From an uncultured archaeon (GTDB taxonomy: Archaea > Iainarchaeota > Iainarchaeia > Iainarchaeales > VGJJ01), in the NCBI GenBank assembly GCA_964480705.1, contig CAYZPC010000001.1, positions 31,297-95,296 of the forward strand: a stretch of 64,000 bases of DNA, written 5' to 3'. Each line of letters starts with the position of its first letter. Position 1 is the first letter of the stretch. Made by a program: the position numbers and the translations under genes. The notes beneath the pieces were generated by a model that was not told where the DNA came from, made no database searches, and saw only the letters and a program-made list of their open reading frames with translations. Below are positions 3,208-53,581 of this stretch, one piece after another.

Positions 3208-3252
3208 ATAATTTTGATGCATCGTTCCAACACGGAAAATTGTTAGAAAAAG

Positions 3253-3336
3253 TGCAGGGAGCAGGATTCGAACCTGCGAAGGCACTAAGCCAGTGCGGCC
3301 TAAACGCACTCCGGTTGACCGCTACGGTATCCCTGC
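3253..3336 (-). tRNA. tRNA-Leu (anticodon TAG), class II, no encoded CCA
   Basis: RC: GCAGGGA acceptor, anticodon stem GTGCG-CGCAC with loop TTTAGGC, long variable arm, T-arm GCAGG-TTCGAAT-CCTGC. Confidence 0.8.
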
Positions 3337-3337
3337 A

Positions 3338-3358
3338 AACTTTTTGTCAAAAAGTTTG
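3338..3358. repeat. Palindrome AAACTTTTTGTCAAAAAGTTT (member of recurring A5/T5 palindrome family; terminator-like)
   Basis: Near-perfect inverted repeat read directly; sits between the 3' end of the gene at 3416..4399 and the tRNA-Leu 5' end. Confidence 0.6.
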
Positions 3359-7212: not shown

Positions 7213-8544
7213 TCACTTTTGAAAGGCATTCGCGGTGGTTCCGCCATCCCAGCTCGTGCGGGGGCGCATTTTCACGGTGTAAATAGACTCGGCGTTGTCA
7301 TCGAGTAAGAGAGCAAACCCTCTTCCGCGAGGCATTTCTGCGTATAATTTGTCAAAGTCTCCGTGCATGTAGGATGGTCGCAGTTGAGACACGGCCATAA
7401 TATCATCTTGCGCCGTCATGCGGTGAGAGATGAATAAATCACACTGCGAAATAGCATCCGGGTGCAATTTATTCGGCCGCTGCGTCGCGAGCACTAAACT
7501 CAATCCCGGTTGGCGCCCCACACGAATCCATTCGAGTAAAACATTCAGCGCAATGTTGGGTTCATCTTTGGGCATGAACATGTGTGCTTCATCAATCATC
7601 ATCCAGACAATGGGCATTTGACTCTCGCGTCCAAGGCCTTTCATTAAGCGAATTTCTTCTTCTTTTCTAAACAACATTCGTTCTTCAAATAATTTTTTTC
7701 CCAACAATGCGACAATAATATCTTTCGTGCCTTCCATTCCAATGGCTTGGCGGTATGCGGACACATCAATAATGGTGATTTTCCCCGCTTCGGCGATGTC
7801 GCGAATTTTTGTTCCTTCTTTTTCTAACAACCCCCATTCTCTCGCCATCTCCACGCGATTTTTGAGGGCTTGTTTGGTGAGCGCATCCGCTTCCGCGTCT
7901 TGAGTAATTCCTAAAATGATCTCATCCAATCCAAAACGCATACCGAGTTTTTCTTTCATGTCATTGATGACGCGTCCTAACAAAATGGCTTCTGGGTCAT
8001 GCCACGTGTATCGAAATAATGCCATCCATTCCGTGATGTCCATTTCTCCCGCGCGAATGGTTAGAGGGCCATCCACCGGGATGTCTTTTTCTTTGTAAAA
8101 GTCCAGTTTTCCTTTGGGAACAAGCACGCGCACTGGAATGCTTTCGGGTGTGAGCCCCCATTCGGATAATTCTTTTTCATTTCCGCGCGTGGGAATTTTG
8201 AGTGTCCAGAATATTCCCACCATGTCAATCACAATCACCGAGACGCGGCGTTTCATTTCGGGTGCGAGTTTGGAAAACTCTTCAATCATCGTGGCCATGG
8301 AGTATGATTTTCCTCCGCCGCGTTTTCCACAAATCAAAATAACATGCGGTTTGGAAACATCCATCAAGACTTTTCGTCCCAACACCGGATTCTCTCCGCT
8401 CGACATAACGACTTTTCCAATGTATGCCGTTCCTTCCTCGCCGTATTTTTGTACATCTGCTGGCGTTCGCCCCACAACGGTGTTGCGTGCCGCAAAATCC
8501 ACTCCCATTTGTTTATCGGCCATTCTTCGAAGGAAAAACCCCAA
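7213..8544 (-). CDS. HerA/FtsK-superfamily P-loop ATPase (DUF87-like), orphan, no NurA partner
   Basis: Walker A ICGKRGGGKSY; Walker B MMIDEAHMF; LVLATQRP motif typical of HerA/FtsK-like ATPases. Confidence 0.7.
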   Translation of the reverse strand: MGFFLRRMADKQMGVDFAARNTVVGRTPADVQKYGEEGTAYIGKVVMSSGENPVLGRKVLMDVSKPHVILICGKRGGGKSYSMATMIEEFSKLAPEMKRRVSVIVIDMVGIFWTLKIPTRGNEKELSEWGLTPESIPVRVLVPKGKLDFYKEKDIPVDGPLTIRAGEMDITEWMALFRYTWHDPEAILLGRVINDMKEKLGMRFGLDEIILGITQDAEADALTKQALKNRVEMAREWGLLEKEGTKIRDIAEAGKITIIDVSAYRQAIGMEGTKDIIVALLGKKLFEERMLFRKEEEIRLMKGLGRESQMPIVWMMIDEAHMFMPKDEPNIALNVLLEWIRVGRQPGLSLVLATQRPNKLHPDAISQCDLFISHRMTAQDDIMAVSQLRPSYMHGDFDKLYAEMPRGRGFALLLDDNAESIYTVKMRPRTSWDGGTTANAFQK

Positions 8545-8632
8545 CTATATAAATCGGCCTTTTTGGAAAAAACATGCGATAACAGAAAATGGAAAAGCGG
8601 GTGTTTTTATATGACAATTTAGTGGTAGGAGA

Positions 8633-9103
8633 ATGCCCTCCAAAGAGTTGAAAGAACGCGAAGAAACCCTGCAAGCGTTACTAAAGAAAATTGACGCGGA
8701 CATTGATGTTTTCACCAAGCGTTTGGAAAAACTCCACGTGAAACACGATGAGCTCACGGGCGTAGTATTAGATGCGGGTCTGGAACCCGTTCCCATTTCC
8801 TTTCAAGCGGGGAAGAATGCGGATGTGATTAGTGAGTTAGAATCCCATGTTCTTGAACTCAACAAGCTCAAAAATTTGCTGAGTATGAAACTCCGCCGCA
8901 TTCTTCAAGAGGAAGATTTGTTGGAACATTTGCAAACCGAGTATGGAAAAAATGTCACATTCAAGCGCAACACCAAAGGTGGAGTGGAGTTGCAAGTGCA
9001 GGATAAGGATGCGGAAGAAGCATTTGCCCAATTGCAAGTGAGCAAGAAAAAATTAGATGAGTTGAGAGAGCAAATTCACGAGTTGGGCGATCCCGAAGAA
9101 TAA
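8633..9103 (+). CDS. Coiled-coil protein (possibly prefoldin-like)
   Basis: AGGAG RBS 5 nt upstream; two long heptad regions separated by a short beta-hairpin-like segment. Confidence 0.45.
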   Translation: MPSKELKEREETLQALLKKIDADIDVFTKRLEKLHVKHDELTGVVLDAGLEPVPISFQAGKNADVISELESHVLELNKLKNLLSMKLRRILQEEDLLEHLQTEYGKNVTFKRNTKGGVELQVQDKDAEEAFAQLQVSKKKLDELREQIHELGDPEE

Positions 9104-9185
9104 GTTGCTATTTTCTCCCCGTAAGCCTTTTTCCTTTGTATTCATACGTGTCTTTTAAAGGAAATTCGCACGTTTATCTTAGTAT

Positions 9186-9848
9186 ATGGCCGATGAAATA
9201 ACGCTCGATAAGGAAGTTTTCAAAGCGCTTGCGGGAGACACACGTGTTTCCGTGTTGAAATCATTAATGCAGCGCCGAAAAACACAAAGTGAATTGGCGA
9301 AAGAATTGAACCTCGCCGCGCCCACGATTAAAGATCATTTGGATATTTTGCAGAAAGCCCAACTCGTGAGAGAAGTGGATGATGGTCACAAATGGAAATA
9401 CATTGAATTAACCGTCAAAGGAAAATCACTCTTACAGCCAACTGACAAGCGTATCATGGTCTTGTTAGGAACCAGTTTGTTTGGTGTTGCAGCGGCCGGT
9501 TTTTTGGCGTATTCAAAATTCTCCTCTCTTGCATTCCAGAATTTTTCCACTTTTGCCGCCGATAACACGGCGGTGATGAAAGCCGGTTCTCTTCCCGCGG
9601 ATGCGATGATTGCGAGTGGGAGCGAATTAACCCAAGCGGCTCCCCTTGTTTCAGGAGAAGGTGCCAATGCTTCTATTGAAGTTGGTCGCACCGCGTTGGA
9701 AGCGGCCGCGCCGAGTGTTTCTCCTCTTGCCACGGATGTGGCGGCGCAAACATTCGCCTGGATTCCCACTCCTGAATTGGCAGTATTAGTAATTTGTTTA
9801 GTCGTTTTTGGTTTAGCGTGTGGAATGTGGATCAAACAGACATACTAA
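9186..9848 (+). CDS. ArsR-family HTH transcriptional regulator with C-terminal membrane anchor
   Basis: N-terminal ALAGDTRVSVLKSL..QSELAKELNLAAPTIKDHLDIL wHTH; C-terminal hydrophobic helix. Confidence 0.75.
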   Translation: MADEITLDKEVFKALAGDTRVSVLKSLMQRRKTQSELAKELNLAAPTIKDHLDILQKAQLVREVDDGHKWKYIELTVKGKSLLQPTDKRIMVLLGTSLFGVAAAGFLAYSKFSSLAFQNFSTFAADNTAVMKAGSLPADAMIASGSELTQAAPLVSGEGANASIEVGRTALEAAAPSVSPLATDVAAQTFAWIPTPELAVLVICLVVFGLACGMWIKQTY

Positions 9849-9849
9849 T

Positions 9850-9872
9850 TGAAACTTTTTGAAAAAGTTTCA
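9850..9872. repeat. Palindrome TGAAACTTTTTGAAAAAGTTTCA (A5/T5 palindrome family)
   Basis: 23-bp inverted repeat 2 nt after the ArsR stop codon. Confidence 0.6.
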
Positions 9873-9954
9873 TCAAAAGCCTACTTGGGGATTCTACGAA
9901 TCCCCAATAGTAGTCCGTCCGCGCGGCCGGAGGTTACCGGCCTTAGAAAGAGTA

Positions 9955-10080
9955 AGGCGGGGACGGGTTGGGTTGTCCCCGGCCTTTGGGTTGGTTGGGT
10001 TGTTAGGCAAATTGGGTTGGTTAAGAAGCATCAACGCAGCAACGGCGGGCCATCTTGGTTGGGTTGGGAGTTAAGGAGGC
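9955..10080 (+). repeat. G-rich GGGTTGG/GGTTGG repeat tract (potential G-quadruplex) in a structured intergenic region
   Basis: Nine or more GGGTTGG/GGTTGG units; no ORF on either strand; the 27-mer TCTTGGTTGGGTTGGGAGTTAAGGAGG is duplicated at 10366. Confidence 0.6.
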
Positions 10081-10138
10081 AGCCCACCGCGCTGAGTTGA
10101 TACAATCTTTCTTGGGAAGCATCATTGTGTTTTTTGAT

Positions 10139-10161
10139 AAAACTTTTTTTCAAAAAGTTTT
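10139..10161. repeat. Palindrome AAAACTTTTTTTCAAAAAGTTTT (A5/T5 family) at the stop of the wHTH gene
   Basis: Inverted repeat read directly. Confidence 0.55.
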
Positions 10162-10635
10162 TCGGACGAACACCACCTTTTTTCCGGATTGGATTTTTCC
10201 AAGGTAGCCGGTTTTGACGAGTGCATTGAGTCGTTGCGAGGCCGCGTTGGGATTTTTGTATCCTGCGTGCGTGCGCACCTCTTCGGCGTTGGCTTTTCCA
10301 TTTTTTTCAATGTATGCGAGTATTTTTTGGTCCGCTTCGGGTAAGAGTGAAATCGAATGCAGGTTCTCTTGGGTTGGGTTGGGAGTCAGGGAGGTTCCTG
10401 CATTCGATTTTAGTGCGAGGGATAATTCATCGTATTTTTCTTCCATCTTGGCGAGCAAATCATTCGTTTGCTTGCGTTCTTGAGCAAGTTTGAATAGGAG
10501 CGCGGCGATAATCATGGGGTTATCTTTCCCCGCTTGCATGACATCATTCAAGTCTGCCGTGAGGGTGGAGAATTCGGGGCTAATCTGCTCCATCAAGGCT
10601 TGCGGAGTCAGTTTTCGATAATCACGATTGGTCAT
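10150..10635 (-). CDS. Winged-helix (MarR/PadR-like) DNA-binding protein with N-terminal coiled-coil domain
   Basis: C-terminus ILAYIEKNGKANAEEVRTHAGYKNPNAASQRLNALVKTGYLGKI wHTH pattern. Confidence 0.6.
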   Translation of the reverse strand: MTNRDYRKLTPQALMEQISPEFSTLTADLNDVMQAGKDNPMIIAALLFKLAQERKQTNDLLAKMEEKYDELSLALKSNAGTSLTPNPTQENLHSISLLPEADQKILAYIEKNGKANAEEVRTHAGYKNPNAASQRLNALVKTGYLGKIQSGKKVVFVRKTF

Positions 10636-10640
10636 GCATC

Positions 10641-10659
10641 GTCATGATGGCATCATGAC
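10641..10659. promoter_or_regulatory. Operator-like palindrome GTCATGATGGCATCATGAC abutting TATA box CTATATAAAG in a divergent promoter
   Basis: Perfect 9-bp inverted repeat 6 nt upstream of the wHTH gene start and immediately 5' of a TATA-like box for the + strand gene. Confidence 0.5.
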
Positions 10660-10749
10660 TATATAAAGCTTGCGGGTGGGAAATGCGAAATGCTGCCTCT
10701 CTTTTTCTATGTCTTTATAGTTTTTATAGGTGGTTCCCGTCTGGTTTGA

Positions 10750-11460
10750 ATGGGCAAATCTTTTCGCTCCAAGCGTCCTTCCCGCGTGCGAGTGTTGCGG
10801 GTTCGCCGAGTGATTCCTCACGATGTCCAGAAACCATCTTCTACACAACCGTTGTTTTTGCAACGCGCTGCCCCCCATTCTTTTTCTTTCCGTGAAACTA
10901 CTTTGTGGCATTATGGTGACCCTGTGGGTTATGGTCGCGTGACGAATCCCATTGTGGGTCACACACGTGATAGTCGGCATTTGGTTTTGGCGGATAGAAA
11001 AAAACCTCGTGCGGCGTTGGCCTACTGGCATAAAGGGGAAGATTGGGTCATTACTTCTATTCAGCGCCTGCGCACCGAATATGTCTTGTCTTCGAAGTTG
11101 GGGGTTCACTCGTTTACGTGGAATGCGCGCAAAGAAACGGAACGTGGGAAGGATTTTGCTCGTGCATTAGGCATGCATCCTTCGGAATTTTTGTTGAGTC
11201 AATTTTTGTTTGCACATCGTGATGAAATCATTTCGGGAAAGAAAATATTTTTGGAACTTGTTGATTATGGTTTTCGGGGCAAAGATAACTCGAATTATTC
11301 CAATCAGGAAATATACGGCCCCATCCTCGAGCGTTTTTTCAAGCGCACTCCTTCGAAAACAGTTTTACTCGGGGAAAATTGTTCGGTGAAAAATTATGAG
11401 TTGAGTTTAGAAAAGCGCCGCGTGCGTGATGCATTGGGTTTGCCTCCGCTAAAAAAATAA
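10750..11460 (+). CDS. Hypothetical basic protein (236 aa)
   Basis: Longest ORF in the region with protein-like composition; start uncertain. Confidence 0.4.
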   Translation: MGKSFRSKRPSRVRVLRVRRVIPHDVQKPSSTQPLFLQRAAPHSFSFRETTLWHYGDPVGYGRVTNPIVGHTRDSRHLVLADRKKPRAALAYWHKGEDWVITSIQRLRTEYVLSSKLGVHSFTWNARKETERGKDFARALGMHPSEFLLSQFLFAHRDEIISGKKIFLELVDYGFRGKDNSNYSNQEIYGPILERFFKRTPSKTVLLGENCSVKNYELSLEKRRVRDALGLPPLKK

Positions 11461-11573
11461 TTTTTATAAAAAAGAAAAATAGAAATTTCCCGTCCTCGTT
11501 GGAGGAGCGGGTAAAAAAATGTCTGGGGAACATTTACGTTCCCCTAACTTCCGCGCGGCCGCAGGTTAGCGGC

Positions 11574-12437
11574 CTACTTCAGATATTTGATGGTGTTCTG
11601 GAATATTCCGCTGGTGACGCCCGGGTTGTAGTTGAAGTAAATGACTTTTCCTCCGCCTAATTGGGCTTGTTCCACAATCGCGGGGAAGTTCTTTCCCGTT
11701 CGTGCGTCTTCAATGTAGGCGATTTCATTTCCCGTGACACCTACATCAAATACTTCCAATGCTAAATATCCTGCTTCGGCTTGTGCGGGCACGCGTTCAA
11801 TTCCCTGCATGATGGGGTGTCGGTAGTCTTGTTGCCAAATAACTCCAATCACTCCAATCGGTCGTTTGCACGTGGGTTGTCCGTCTAAAATAATGTCACA
11901 ATTCACCGGAACAATATTTCCGAAGTTGGCTTTCCAACCTAAAATATCCAATGCGCCCGGTTGTTCAATTCCTGAATCCTTAATGATGACGAGTTTTCCT
12001 CCCGTCTTCACGTAGTTTTGCAACGCGTCTCCCAACTGTCGGGGAATGGCTTTGCTGATTTGTCCGGTTTGATCTAAAACAACTATATCAAATTGGGCGA
12101 GCTGATTTTCAGGATTGTTGGAAAACCCTTCCGCTGCCCGTATGAGTGGACTTCCCACTAAATCCTTGTTGGCGTTCAGCACGGCAATCATTTCGGGCGA
12201 AGGTGCGCCGATGATGAGCATTCGTGCGGTTGCGCTGGGGGATATTGCTCCCACAATGGGTCCGATAACGGGTGTAGATGTGTCAATCACTCCCAACCTT
12301 GCGAGGAGTAAGAATCCAATCACCACAATCAAAATAATGGGTATAATGGCTTCCAAGTTGAAATGCAATCGGCTGCCGATTCCATCATCAATGGGTGGTA
12401 AATCCGCGCCACCGCCATATGCATCTTCATTCGCCAT
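11574..12437 (-). CDS. Membrane-anchored extracytoplasmic protein (paralogous to 13076..14044)
   Basis: N-terminal TM IIPIILIVVIGFLLLA; shared blocks FDIVVLDQTG/FDLVIVTRAK and GGKLVIIKDSG/GGRLVWTGDAG with the second paralog. Confidence 0.55.
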   Translation of the reverse strand: MANEDAYGGGADLPPIDDGIGSRLHFNLEAIIPIILIVVIGFLLLARLGVIDTSTPVIGPIVGAISPSATARMLIIGAPSPEMIAVLNANKDLVGSPLIRAAEGFSNNPENQLAQFDIVVLDQTGQISKAIPRQLGDALQNYVKTGGKLVIIKDSGIEQPGALDILGWKANFGNIVPVNCDIILDGQPTCKRPIGVIGVIWQQDYRHPIMQGIERVPAQAEAGYLALEVFDVGVTGNEIAYIEDARTGKNFPAIVEQAQLGGGKVIYFNYNPGVTSGIFQNTIKYLK

Positions 12438-18397: not shown

Positions 18398-18469
18398 TGG
18401 ACCCGGGAGGGGTTGAACCTCCGACCTTCGCTGTATAAGAACGCTGCTCTACCACTGAGCTACGGGTCC
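18398..18469 (-). tRNA. tRNA, probable tRNA-Ile (anticodon TAT) with G27.A43 mismatch
   Basis: RC: GGACCCG-TA-GCTC-AGTGGTA-GAGC-A-GCGTT-CTTATAC-AGCGA-AGGTC-GGAGG-TTCAACC-CCTCC-CGGGTCC-A. Confidence 0.6.
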
Positions 18470-42306: not shown

Positions 42307-42329
42307 AAACTTTTTGGTAAAAAGTTTGG
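42307..42329. repeat. Palindrome CAAACTTTTTGGTAAAAAGTTTG preceded by TTGAT (A5/T5 family)
   Basis: 11 nt after the tag stop; near-identical copy at 53261. Confidence 0.6.
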
Positions 42330-52505: not shown

Positions 52506-53141
52506 ATGGAAATTCTCTCCTATCGCGAATCGCGTATTTTCTCAAAGCAGGCAACCGACCGTATTTTGCAGTCCATTGCTCGAGCGAATGGTCCGATTGT
52601 TCTTCCGGTGGATATTGAATCAATTGCCCATTGCCGCCGCGCCGCACGAGACCCCGCAGTGGTTGCTTCCATTGCAAAAAACCCGTATGGTTTGGACGTA
52701 ATCTCTCTAGCCATTTATTCGATGGCACAAGGAAAGCAAATCGTTCCCATGTTTAATTCAGCGTGGAAAAAACTAGGCAAGCAACATCATCAAGCCTATG
52801 CCGCTTTCGAATCATTGTCAAGTCGTTCGAATGATTTGGCTCGTGCACGCGTGCAGTACGCCCATCGCGAATATTCAATTGAAGCGGCTCGTCTCAAAAA
52901 TTTTTATGAGCGTTTTAGAAAAATTTCTCCTGCGTTGATTGTGGCGGAAGATAATTATGCGATTATTTTTGGCAAACTATTTCGCACCCGCGTACAGAGA
53001 CTCAGCCGACATTCCCGGAGCGGTTTGATGATCATTCGTAAAGTTTGGCCTCACGTAGTGGAAGCATTTAGGGATAATCCCGTTGCTATTCACTCGCGCA
53101 GGCATGGGAGAAAAATAAGGCGTTTGAGAAAAGGAAAGTGA
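52506..53141 (+). CDS. Hypothetical basic protein
   Basis: ORF only. Confidence 0.4.
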   Translation: MEILSYRESRIFSKQATDRILQSIARANGPIVLPVDIESIAHCRRAARDPAVVASIAKNPYGLDVISLAIYSMAQGKQIVPMFNSAWKKLGKQHHQAYAAFESLSSRSNDLARARVQYAHREYSIEAARLKNFYERFRKISPALIVAEDNYAIIFGKLFRTRVQRLSRHSRSGLMIIRKVWPHVVEAFRDNPVAIHSRRHGRKIRRLRKGK

Positions 53142-53260
53142 GTGCAAAAACGGGCGCGGGAAATTTCTTTCCCGCTACCCAATTTGCTGAGGAGATGTTT
53201 CTGGGAAGGGTGATAAAATGCGTCTGCCCCTTTGTGGGGCAATTTTTACTTGTTTTTGAT

Positions 53261-53283
53261 CAAACTTTTTAGGAAAAAGTTTG
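53261..53283. repeat. Palindrome CAAACTTTTTAGGAAAAAGTTTG preceded by TTGAT (A5/T5 family)
   Basis: Near-identical to the copy at 42307. Confidence 0.6.
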
Positions 53284-53581
53284 GTGGTTGGGAGCCTTCG
53301 GAATTATCCTGTTCGAGCCAGGTGAGCCTACTCCCAAACCAAGTTTGAGATTGTCATATTCCGATCTTGTTCAACCACCTCGCGCAATCTTTACTCGTTT
53401 TCTCATATATAATCCTGCCAAAACCATATTTCCGCTCTTTTGTATCATGTATTCATGTTTGCTATTTTTTTTGTTTCATCGATTGTTGTTCCACTCTCTA
53501 AATGAAACAATTCTCTCGAAGGAGCCATTCTTCGAGTATCGCACGAAACGCGTTTAAAGGAGGAAATTCCCTTGTACGTGT

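Follow-up and report, generated by a model that had tools for sequence, protein, structure and literature searches.

The intergenic region at 9849-10150 of a 64,000-nucleotide stretch from an uncultured archaeon of the Iainarchaeota (assembly GCA_964480705.1, contig CAYZPC010000001.1; the whole stretch is called the window, and positions are counted from its first letter) is flanked by two convergent genes: an ArsR-like gene on the plus strand (9186-9848), encoding a winged-helix protein with a membrane segment at its C-terminus, and a gene for a 161-amino-acid (161-aa) winged helix-turn-helix (wHTH) protein on the minus strand (10150-10635). A first-pass annotation, made from the letters alone, had described the region as a hairpin-dense, G-tract-rich candidate locus for a non-coding RNA (ncRNA) or a G-quadruplex, and the elements that it listed are all found in the sequence. 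The ArsR-like stop codon TAA (9846-9848) is directly followed by the 23-nt palindrome TGAAACTTTTTGAAAAAGTTTCA (P1, 9850-9872), after which come a perfect 10-bp hairpin, TTGGGGATTC-TAC-GAATCCCCAA (H1, 9885-9907), a GGCCGG-AGGTTA-CCGGCC hairpin (H2, 9925-9942), GGTTG repeats, and a second palindrome, AAACTTTTTTTCAAAAAGTTT (P2, 10140-10160). The repeats had been put at nine or more units over ~125 nt; they are present, with number and length slightly overstated, as eight GGTTG and six GGTTGG units within 9965-10067 (~100 nt). Allowing at most one mismatch, GGTTGGGTTGG occurs five times in the window compared to 1.6 expected, with four of the five copies inside 9966-10382. The region also folds more stably than shuffled sequences by minimum free energy (MFE; z-scores of –4.5 and –10.6 for the plus and minus strand, respectively), and none of 100 shuffles was equally stable. 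The open reading frame (ORF) listing agrees with the annotation that 9849-10150 holds no plausible ORF, and a tRNA/tmRNA scan found no gene there. The Rfam comparison that it had proposed gave no family match for the region: Rfam 15 at gathering thresholds returned three tRNAs and nothing else for the whole window, only noise for 9700-10300 at E ≤ 10 (scores of 12-20 bits, with thresholds at 48-60), and tRNAs only for 20 related loci.

Comparison with orthologous regions, also proposed at that stage, was more informative. The comparison covered 80 metagenome loci (L083-L162) and 14 genome loci, which are the window itself and L003-L015, and on this sequence evidence the conserved core of the region is the segment at about 9954-10139, read on the minus strand. 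On that strand the repeats read CCAACC and lie unpaired in loops and linkers, and the order from 5′ to 3′ is stop codon, stem B, a G-free linker, stem A, and then, in 8 of 13 distinct lineages, a run of T5-T7 within ~12 nt of stem A. The 5′ part, from stop codon to stem B (10107-10139, CACAAUGAUGCUUCCCAAGAAAGAUUGU), holds a conserved RYGCUUCC motif. Stem B (10025-10106) is an interrupted hairpin of ~22-25 bp with the invariant apical loop CCUCCUUAACUCCCAACCCAACCAAG (10053-10079 in plus-strand coordinates), and homologues of this hairpin are present in all Iainarchaeota-type loci. The C/A-rich single-stranded linker between the two stems (9987-10024, AACCAACCCAAUUUGCCUAACAACCCAACCAACCCA) contains the near-invariant CCCAAUUUGCCUA (plus strand TAGGCAAATTGGG, 10004-10016), shows GGCAAATTGGG at the same position in 12 related loci, and is unpaired in the sense-strand MFE structure of every homologue. 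Stem A (9954-9986), the 3′-terminal hairpin of the core, is formed by AAGGCCGGGGAC and GUCCCCGCCUU around the loop AACCCAACCC. The two stems, both GC-rich, hold out the invariant C/A-rich, G-free segments CCUCCUUAACUCCCAACCCAACC, CCCAAUUUGCCUA and AACCCAACCC, and each mRNA of the 161-aa gene carries at least five CCCAAC-type motifs, including a copy in the coding sequence (CDS) described below. In the window and its closest relatives CUCUUUCU replaces the T-run, and is followed by H2, H1 and the U4/U5 tracts at P1. The conserved UGAUGCUUCC or UGAUACUUCC takes in the stop codon in L005, L006, L008, L010 and L015, so that a separate promoter would have no space there. Big insertions are seen at the apical loop of stem B and in the linker of L003 (6640-6760), L004 (7500-7670) and L011 (7524-7710), consisting of extra hairpins and palindromic modules and, in L003, of a duplicated 3′-end fragment of the ArsR-like gene; the flanking stem and the ACUCCCAACC motif are retained in all three despite these insertions.

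The stems are maintained by compensatory change. Plain MAFFT alignment with RNAalifold yielded no consensus for the stem-B hairpins, whose arms fell out of register, and was replaced by a covariance model, R1, and by alignment-free tests of the arms. R1 was built from the three alignable stem-B sequences (the window, L005 and L006; hairpins of the 3′ untranslated region (UTR) only), scores 96.4 bits on the minus strand of the window versus 22 bits on the plus strand, and recovers the 3′-UTR hairpin in most other Iainarchaeota-type loci searched, exclusively on the gene-sense strand; in L003, L004, L011 and L014, which have a longer loop or inserted hairpins, stem B was identified by eye. Among 20 hairpins that had not been used for training, 87.5% of cells are paired, versus 52.6% in shuffles and at most 44% with partners slid, and all 24 stem-B pairs show changes on both sides. 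The covariation score of 0.587 compares with 0.153 in shuffles and was reached by 0 of 500. The 5′ arms average only 57% identity between lineages, and each arm nonetheless finds its own 3′ arm as best partner, for stem B in 13 of 13 lineages and for stem A in 8 of 8. Two features of structured cis-regulatory mRNA elements in general, a conserved structure with compensatory changes and a fixed position and orientation relative to one gene family, are both seen here, and the suggestion of a structured RNA made in the first-pass annotation is borne out by conservation across relatives and covarying stems.

The strand, on the other hand, is not the one that the annotation had emphasized. With arms aligned such that G·U and A·C were scored alike, the 3′-UTR stems contain 33 G·U versus 7 A·C on the minus strand, or 21 versus 3 when only positions flanked by Watson–Crick pairs are counted; stem A, in which sequence varies among lineages and pairing is maintained, contributes 5 G·U versus 0 A·C on the sense strand. 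Comparison of MFE between strands is uninformative, as the G-rich antisense loops add spurious pairs. Because wobble asymmetry, constant gene linkage, sense-only R1 matches and the position of oligo-T all agree, we conclude that the C/A-rich minus strand is the functional one and that the G-tracts are its complement.

Linkage to the 161-aa gene is strict and deep. The element lies directly downstream of this gene, on its sense strand, in 14 of 14 genome loci, including six (L004, L009, L011-L014) where other genes intervene between the element and the ArsR-like gene; in the most divergent of these six, L009 and L012, it is reduced to one hairpin, which has the loop ..CUUCUUAACUCCAAAAACCCAACCAACC.. 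and a T-run behind it. In 1.1 Mb of DNA from relatives, all 26 copies of CCCAACCCAACC lie in or beside the 161-aa gene, and ACTCCCAAC has 46 copies in or beside it versus 7 elsewhere (chance ~8). Distant homologues (38-48% protein identity) retain strand-specific ACCCCC and CCUCCUUUGCC after the stop codon. Within 150 nt after the stop in 55 distinct loci of <50% protein identity, ACCCCC was found in 34, TTTGCC in 34, CCTCCTT in 23 and CCTTTGCC in 26, compared to 0-2 each for the same motifs on the antisense strand and in upstream regions; a typical distant tail reads UAACUCCCAACCCCCACCUCCUUUGCC...CCCCCUCCUUUGCCUU and ends in a T-run. The taxon labels of these <50%-identity homologues are Diapherotrites or ainarchaeum, and homologues of both flanking proteins come from metagenome-assembled genomes labelled Candidatus Diapherotrites, Iainarchaeum or ainarchaeum (DPANN).

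The neighbourhood (7213-12437 in the window; L084-L161) conserves a 287-aa membrane protein, sometimes a 236-aa protein, the 161-aa gene, the element, and a HerA-like DUF87 ATPase. In many distant loci the ATPase is the next gene in the same orientation, and in the window it lies at 7213-8544; the clade of the window has the ArsR-like membrane-anchored regulator and a 156-aa coiled-coil gene inserted in inverse orientation between element and ATPase. The element has stayed with the 161-aa gene, and not with the promoter of the ATPase. A viral or mobile origin of the 161-aa gene was also considered and rejected, as no relative was found in IMG/VR.

The 161-aa protein has an N-terminal helical/coiled-coil domain, a disordered linker and a C-terminal winged helix, judging from its ORF and an AlphaFold2 (AF2) model. 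Pfam returned only weak HTH matches, and the best PDB fold matches of the model are generic, namely AspA and MecI/MarR-type winged helices. Of its 51 homologues, those with a taxon name are Candidatus Diapherotrites and the rest are labelled 'archaeon' or unnamed. Upstream, at 10636-10667 on the minus strand, the gene carries TTTATATA followed by TCATGA boxes (GTCATGATGcCATCATGAC), with the ATG 24 nt after the TATA box. Three to four boxes at 11-nt spacing run into the start codon and first codons, such that the N-terminus MTNHD is encoded by ATGACnAATCATGA, and every homologous locus, even at 38% protein identity, keeps this TATA–TCATGA–ATG arrangement. The pattern TCATGAN5TCATGA is unique in the window, and no further TCATGA-box operator was found there. 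Because of the conserved layout, the mRNA is probably leaderless and the boxes probably form an autoregulatory operator, which would make TCATGA, and not GGGTTGG, the DNA operator of this regulator.

The coding sequence itself contains a second stem-B hairpin with the same loop. At 10348-10412 on the minus strand, a perfect 14-bp stem (10350-10363/10397-10410) encloses the loop AACCUCCCUGACUCCCAACCCAACCCAAGAGAA, which encodes the linker KSNAGTSLTPNPTQENLHSIS. The first-pass annotation had overlooked this copy of the repeat core (10372-10394, 91% identical over 23 nt), although its remark that CCAACC can encode Pro-Thr or Asn-Pro proved a good lead, as just this motif lies within a covarying hairpin of the neighbouring gene and codes there for the TPNPT linker. 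R1, which was trained on UTR hairpins, matches the CDS hairpin at 30.1 bits (E = 1.2e-5) and its equivalent in 11 other loci. The stem arms encode K-S-N-A-G and L-H-S-I-S in the window and T-N-G-V-G and A-H-S-I-S in other clades; they covary, pair in different registers by clade, and contain 13-17 G·U versus 0-1 A·C on the mRNA sense strand. In the AF2 model, residues 80-84 and 88-96 of the inter-domain linker have predicted local distance difference test (pLDDT) scores <50, a prediction of disorder. Conservation of the TPNPT linker is therefore plausibly explained by RNA structure rather than by protein function.

On balance, we consider it somewhat probable that the core is a cis-acting, structured 3′ UTR of the mRNA of the 161-aa regulator, presenting multivalent C-rich loops to a candidate trans-acting factor. 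Building on a conserved structure of established strand and single-gene linkage that belongs to no known RNA family, we infer co-transcription with the 161-aa gene because there is no promoter space and oligo-U lies downstream. Stems B and A, varying in sequence and keeping their pairing, would serve to display the C/A-rich loops and linkers, and in most relatives the transcript would end at the oligo-U tract after stem A. The C-rich loops could then act as a multivalent recognition platform for a trans-acting factor, more likely a protein than an RNA, and possibly the dimeric product of the 161-aa gene itself. Binding of this factor may set the stability, 3′-end formation or translation of the leaderless mRNA, adding post-transcriptional control on top of the TCATGA operator.

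Several points weigh against this interpretation. Co-transcription, the 3′ end and even expression of the element rest on our reading of the sequence. The window has no T5 after stem A, where CUCUUUCU stands instead, and in both the window and L004 a T5-containing palindromic module separates stop codon and element. A module of the P2 type could terminate the mRNA early, in which case read-through or a separate promoter would be needed. The invariant recognition helix of the 161-aa protein has an obvious DNA target in the TCATGA boxes, which weakens the case for binding to its own RNA. Furthermore, the pair counts come from an alignment that had been fitted to the structure of the model, and the sequences share ancestry, such that these statistics overstate independence.

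Known systems offer partial parallels to a protein-bound 3′ UTR. The SelB–SECIS (selenocysteine insertion sequence) pair, the Roquin constitutive decay element (ROQ–CDE) and the binding of L7Ae to its own mRNA likewise have hairpins of conserved loop and variable stem, repeated within an mRNA that encodes a nucleic-acid-binding protein; systems of the SelB–SECIS type include winged-helix RNA binders, and a winged-helix protein is encoded by the same mRNA here. The loop sequences of SECIS, CDE and kink-turn are, however, unrelated to ours, and the 161-aa protein has a separate conserved DNA operator. A different parallel is the 3′ UTR of Staphylococcus aureus icaR, whose anti-Shine-Dalgarno (anti-SD) sequence UCCCCUG pairs with its own 5′ UTR, and which resembles the element in placing a C-rich CCUCC in the 3′ UTR of a regulator mRNA. 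In contrast to icaR, the 161-aa mRNA is inferred to be leaderless, with no SD to mask, pairing of its 3′ UTR with its own 5′ end does not exceed that of shuffles (z between –2.2 and +1.7), and CCUCC is not a constant feature: L083 (93% protein identity) carries ACCCUAACUCCC and L012 carries CCUUCUUAACUCC. Archaeal oligo-T terminators resemble the T5-T7 after stem A in most relatives, as well as the palindromic modules with T5 on both strands at gene ends; termination does not explain the conserved loops, and in archaea it needs no upstream structured, sequence-conserved region of 170-300 nt.

We also considered whether the segment could act in trans, as a small RNA (sRNA) or sponge processed from the 3′ UTR or transcribed independently, which appears unlikely. 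Its C-rich loops might pair with G-rich or SD-like mRNA sites, as in RsaE/RoxS and RepG, or titrate a factor, as in CsrB/RsmZ, and the AAUUUGCC single strand with terminal hairpin and U-tract might constitute an Sm/Lsm-binding module. The multiple C-rich motifs in loops and linkers, the anti-SD core CCUCC in many loop variants, and the AU-rich single strand between two hairpins with a U-tract behind them, reminiscent of Hfq/Sm-dependent sRNAs, are all consistent with such a function, as is the terminator-like module that splits CDS from element in the window and L004, where AAAGTTTTATCAAAAA lies ~25 nt upstream of stem B and fits independent expression. RsaE/RoxS, RepG, CpxQ and SroC share with the element C-rich loops on stable stems, an origin at mRNA 3′ ends, and a terminal hairpin with U-tract. 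However, CCUCC is not kept in L083 and L012, searches of the 64-kb window and of related loci totalling 1.1 Mb turned up no complementary G-rich site beyond chance, and most lineages lack space for a promoter. The motif moreover recurs in the CDS of the same gene and, unlike those sRNAs, has remained attached to one gene phylum-wide, at protein identities from 38 to 100%, as cis elements typically do.

A related and more speculative possibility, to which we give little weight, is that in Iainarchaeota the 161-aa mRNA doubles as a multivalent C-rich decoy, titrating either a G-rich RNA or a putative global regulator that binds RNA. The CDS hairpin and 3′-UTR hairpins would jointly form the binding array, in functional analogy to the bacterial CsrB/RsmZ RNAs, which also carry many copies of one short motif in hairpin loops and linkers of a single RNA. 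The likeness is architectural only: the archaeal motif is CCCAAC/ACUCCCAACC instead of GGA and resides in an mRNA tail and CDS instead of a free sRNA, and we know of no CsrA-like partner for an archaeal element. Membership of the CsrB/RsmZ group was rejected on the same difference of repeated motif and because no Rfam CsrB/Rsm model matched. Were the decoy reading true, DPANN archaea would have their first described post-transcriptional circuit of the sponge type.

Explanations that do not involve a minus-strand RNA fare worse. It is improbable that the element functions as DNA, with GGGTTGG repeats serving as duplex sites (iteron- or centromere-like) for the winged-helix protein or folding into G-quadruplex or i-motif structures. 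Direct repeats do stand beside a winged-helix gene whose fold matches include the centromere-binding AspA, and the region offers several two-tetrad G2 patterns and a G4Hunter peak of 1.52. That peak, at about 9948-9972, overlaps a paired arm of stem A, and a canonical quadruplex motif (four G3+ tracts with loops of 1-7 or 1-12 nt) is absent from 9849-10150, which leaves the quadruplex proposal of the first-pass annotation with two-tetrad possibilities only. The GGTTGG and GGGTTG units of the plus strand recall G-quadruplexes and the thrombin-binding aptamer, yet there are no four G3 tracts with short loops, and selection on RNA structure acts on the strand opposite to the G-rich one. Covarying stems with G·U pairs on one strand would moreover be meaningless in duplex DNA, the conserved motifs fall precisely in the loops, repeat spacing is irregular and altered by insertions, and the regulator already has its deeply conserved TCATGA boxes. 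Still less probable is a G-rich plus-strand transcript, either an ncRNA or the 3′ UTR of the ArsR-like gene, that forms RNA quadruplexes or acts as a kissing antisense of the neighbouring mRNA. Its loop GGUUGGGUUGGGAGUUAAGGAGG is complementary at 21 of 23 positions to the CDS-hairpin loop of the 161-aa mRNA, both loops are displayed on stems, and H1 and H2 abut the ArsR-like stop codon. Against this, the core accompanies the 161-aa gene also in loci where other genes separate it from the ArsR-like gene, wobbles favour the minus strand (21-33 versus 3-7), R1 gives no plus-strand matches in non-training loci beside its far lower plus-strand score in the window, and the conserved oligo-T is on the minus strand. 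Finally, we regard it as scarcely credible that the tract is non-functional, composed of slippage repeats or, as the annotation had suggested, a decayed duplicate of a Pro/Thr/Asn linker-coding segment. The low complexity of the motif, and its use next door to encode the TPNPT linker, speak for this reading, but tblastn found no protein-level similarity other than the gene itself, loop sequence and stem pairing are conserved across lineages with 56-93% protein identity, motifs persist to 38%, and the sequence is under RNA-structure constraint.

A number of specific identities were also tried and rejected. A template/variable repeat pair of a diversity-generating retroelement is not supported by a shared segment of only ~23-33 nt with T>C and A>G differences, although a reverse transcriptase was not searched for. 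An attC-like site would show the opposite pattern to the invariant loop and variable stems seen here, and the wobbles indicate RNA; an integrase was not searched for. The features of SECIS elements and bulge-helix-bulge (BHB) introns misfit, judged from sequence only. As for 5S rRNA or a mimic of it, no 5S match was obtained at E ≤ 10 and there is no closing helix; ACUCCCAACCCAAC presumably resembles the loop-C region of 5S rRNA, a likeness for which the 5S model gave no support.

As an RNA motif of Iainarchaeota, the element has not been described before, and in the literature no paper was found that mentions the motif or a comparable RNA element of DPANN archaea. To our knowledge, few conserved structured cis-regulatory RNAs are described in archaea, those in 3′ UTRs are rarer, and none has been described for DPANN, whose lineages are uncultivated and known from metagenomes only. 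With its single-gene linkage and clear covariation, the element provides a concrete and testable entry point to post-transcriptional control in Iainarchaeota and a new family for RNA databases. Its invariant loop sequence is directly usable as bait, and the CDS twin in a disordered linker is an unusually clean case of RNA-structure constraint shaping a coding sequence.

The two A5/T5 palindromes, which the first-pass annotation had treated as part of one region, lie outside the conserved element and are separate, terminator-like modules. P1 has the form AAACTTTTT-G-AAAAAGTTT, with a 1-nt spacer, a module core at 9852-9870 and T5 on both strands; P2, AAACTTTTT-TTC-AAAAAGTTT, overlaps the 161-aa gene and supplies its last codons and stop (..RKTF*). 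Five modules of the type AAACTTTTT-N1-3-AAAAAGTTT occur in the window (3337-3357, 9852-9870, 10140-10160, 42307-42327 and 53262-53282), four of which match the 3-nt-spacer pattern exactly, compared to 0.25 matches expected even at up to three mismatches. They sit at gene 3′ ends, often with TTTTGATnAAA flanks, and are also found in L004, L011, L088, L095 and L141, with insertion points that vary in L004, L011 and L088. Of the relatives, only the closest, L005 and L083, share P1, and the modules are absent at this locus in L006-L008. L004 has the same module and the same C-terminus as the window, whereas the closer relative L005 and the 94%-identical P0001 end in ..RTNQ* and ..RTNK* without a module; P2 is for this reason taken to be inserted and not part of the conserved RNA. 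The palindrome appears to insert independently, as a terminator module resembling a miniature inverted-repeat transposable element (MITE). Adjoining the module at 53262-53282, within a 440-nt intergenic gap, is an ORF-free, hairpin-rich segment of ~100 nt on the plus strand (53283-53382), closed by GGUGGUUGGG/UUCAACCACC and containing CUACUCCCAAACCAAG; the surrounding 281 nt (53140-53420) fold with z = –4.2 and have no Rfam match. This segment may be another ncRNA, and the resemblance of its motif may be due to chance.

H1, which extends to 9881-9913, likewise lies outside the conserved core. It covaries among the window, L005, L003/L006, L007 and L008, and occurs solely in loci with the ArsR-like gene as convergent neighbour, in every case immediately behind the stop codon of that gene; ArsR-like genes with other neighbours have their own, unrelated 3′ hairpin, and the sole non-Watson–Crick pair of H1 in L007 is a G·U on the ArsR (plus) strand. 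H1 therefore probably belongs to the 3′ end of the convergent ArsR-like gene. H2, between core and H1, has covarying equivalents in L006 (GGCCGC/GCGGCC), L007 (GCCCG/CGGGC) and L008 (CGCCG/CGGCG), whereas L004, L013, L014 and L015, in which the ArsR-like gene is not next to the element, lack it. H2, too, probably belongs to the 3′ end of that gene.

An exact look-up of the 161-aa protein returned no record, and public contigs with identical ArsR-like and HerA-like proteins are short. One contig with an identical ArsR-like protein (L001, Logan SRR12487045) ends 90 nt past the stop codon of that gene, inside the hairpin region, which suggests that assemblies tend to break there. Elsewhere in the window, the tRNA-Leu(UAG) at 3252-3336 was found by ARAGORN and missed by Rfam at the gathering threshold, and the other tRNA genes are tRNA-Leu(CAG), tRNA-Val(CAC) and, at 18398-18469 on the minus strand, a tRNA-Ile with anticodon UAU.

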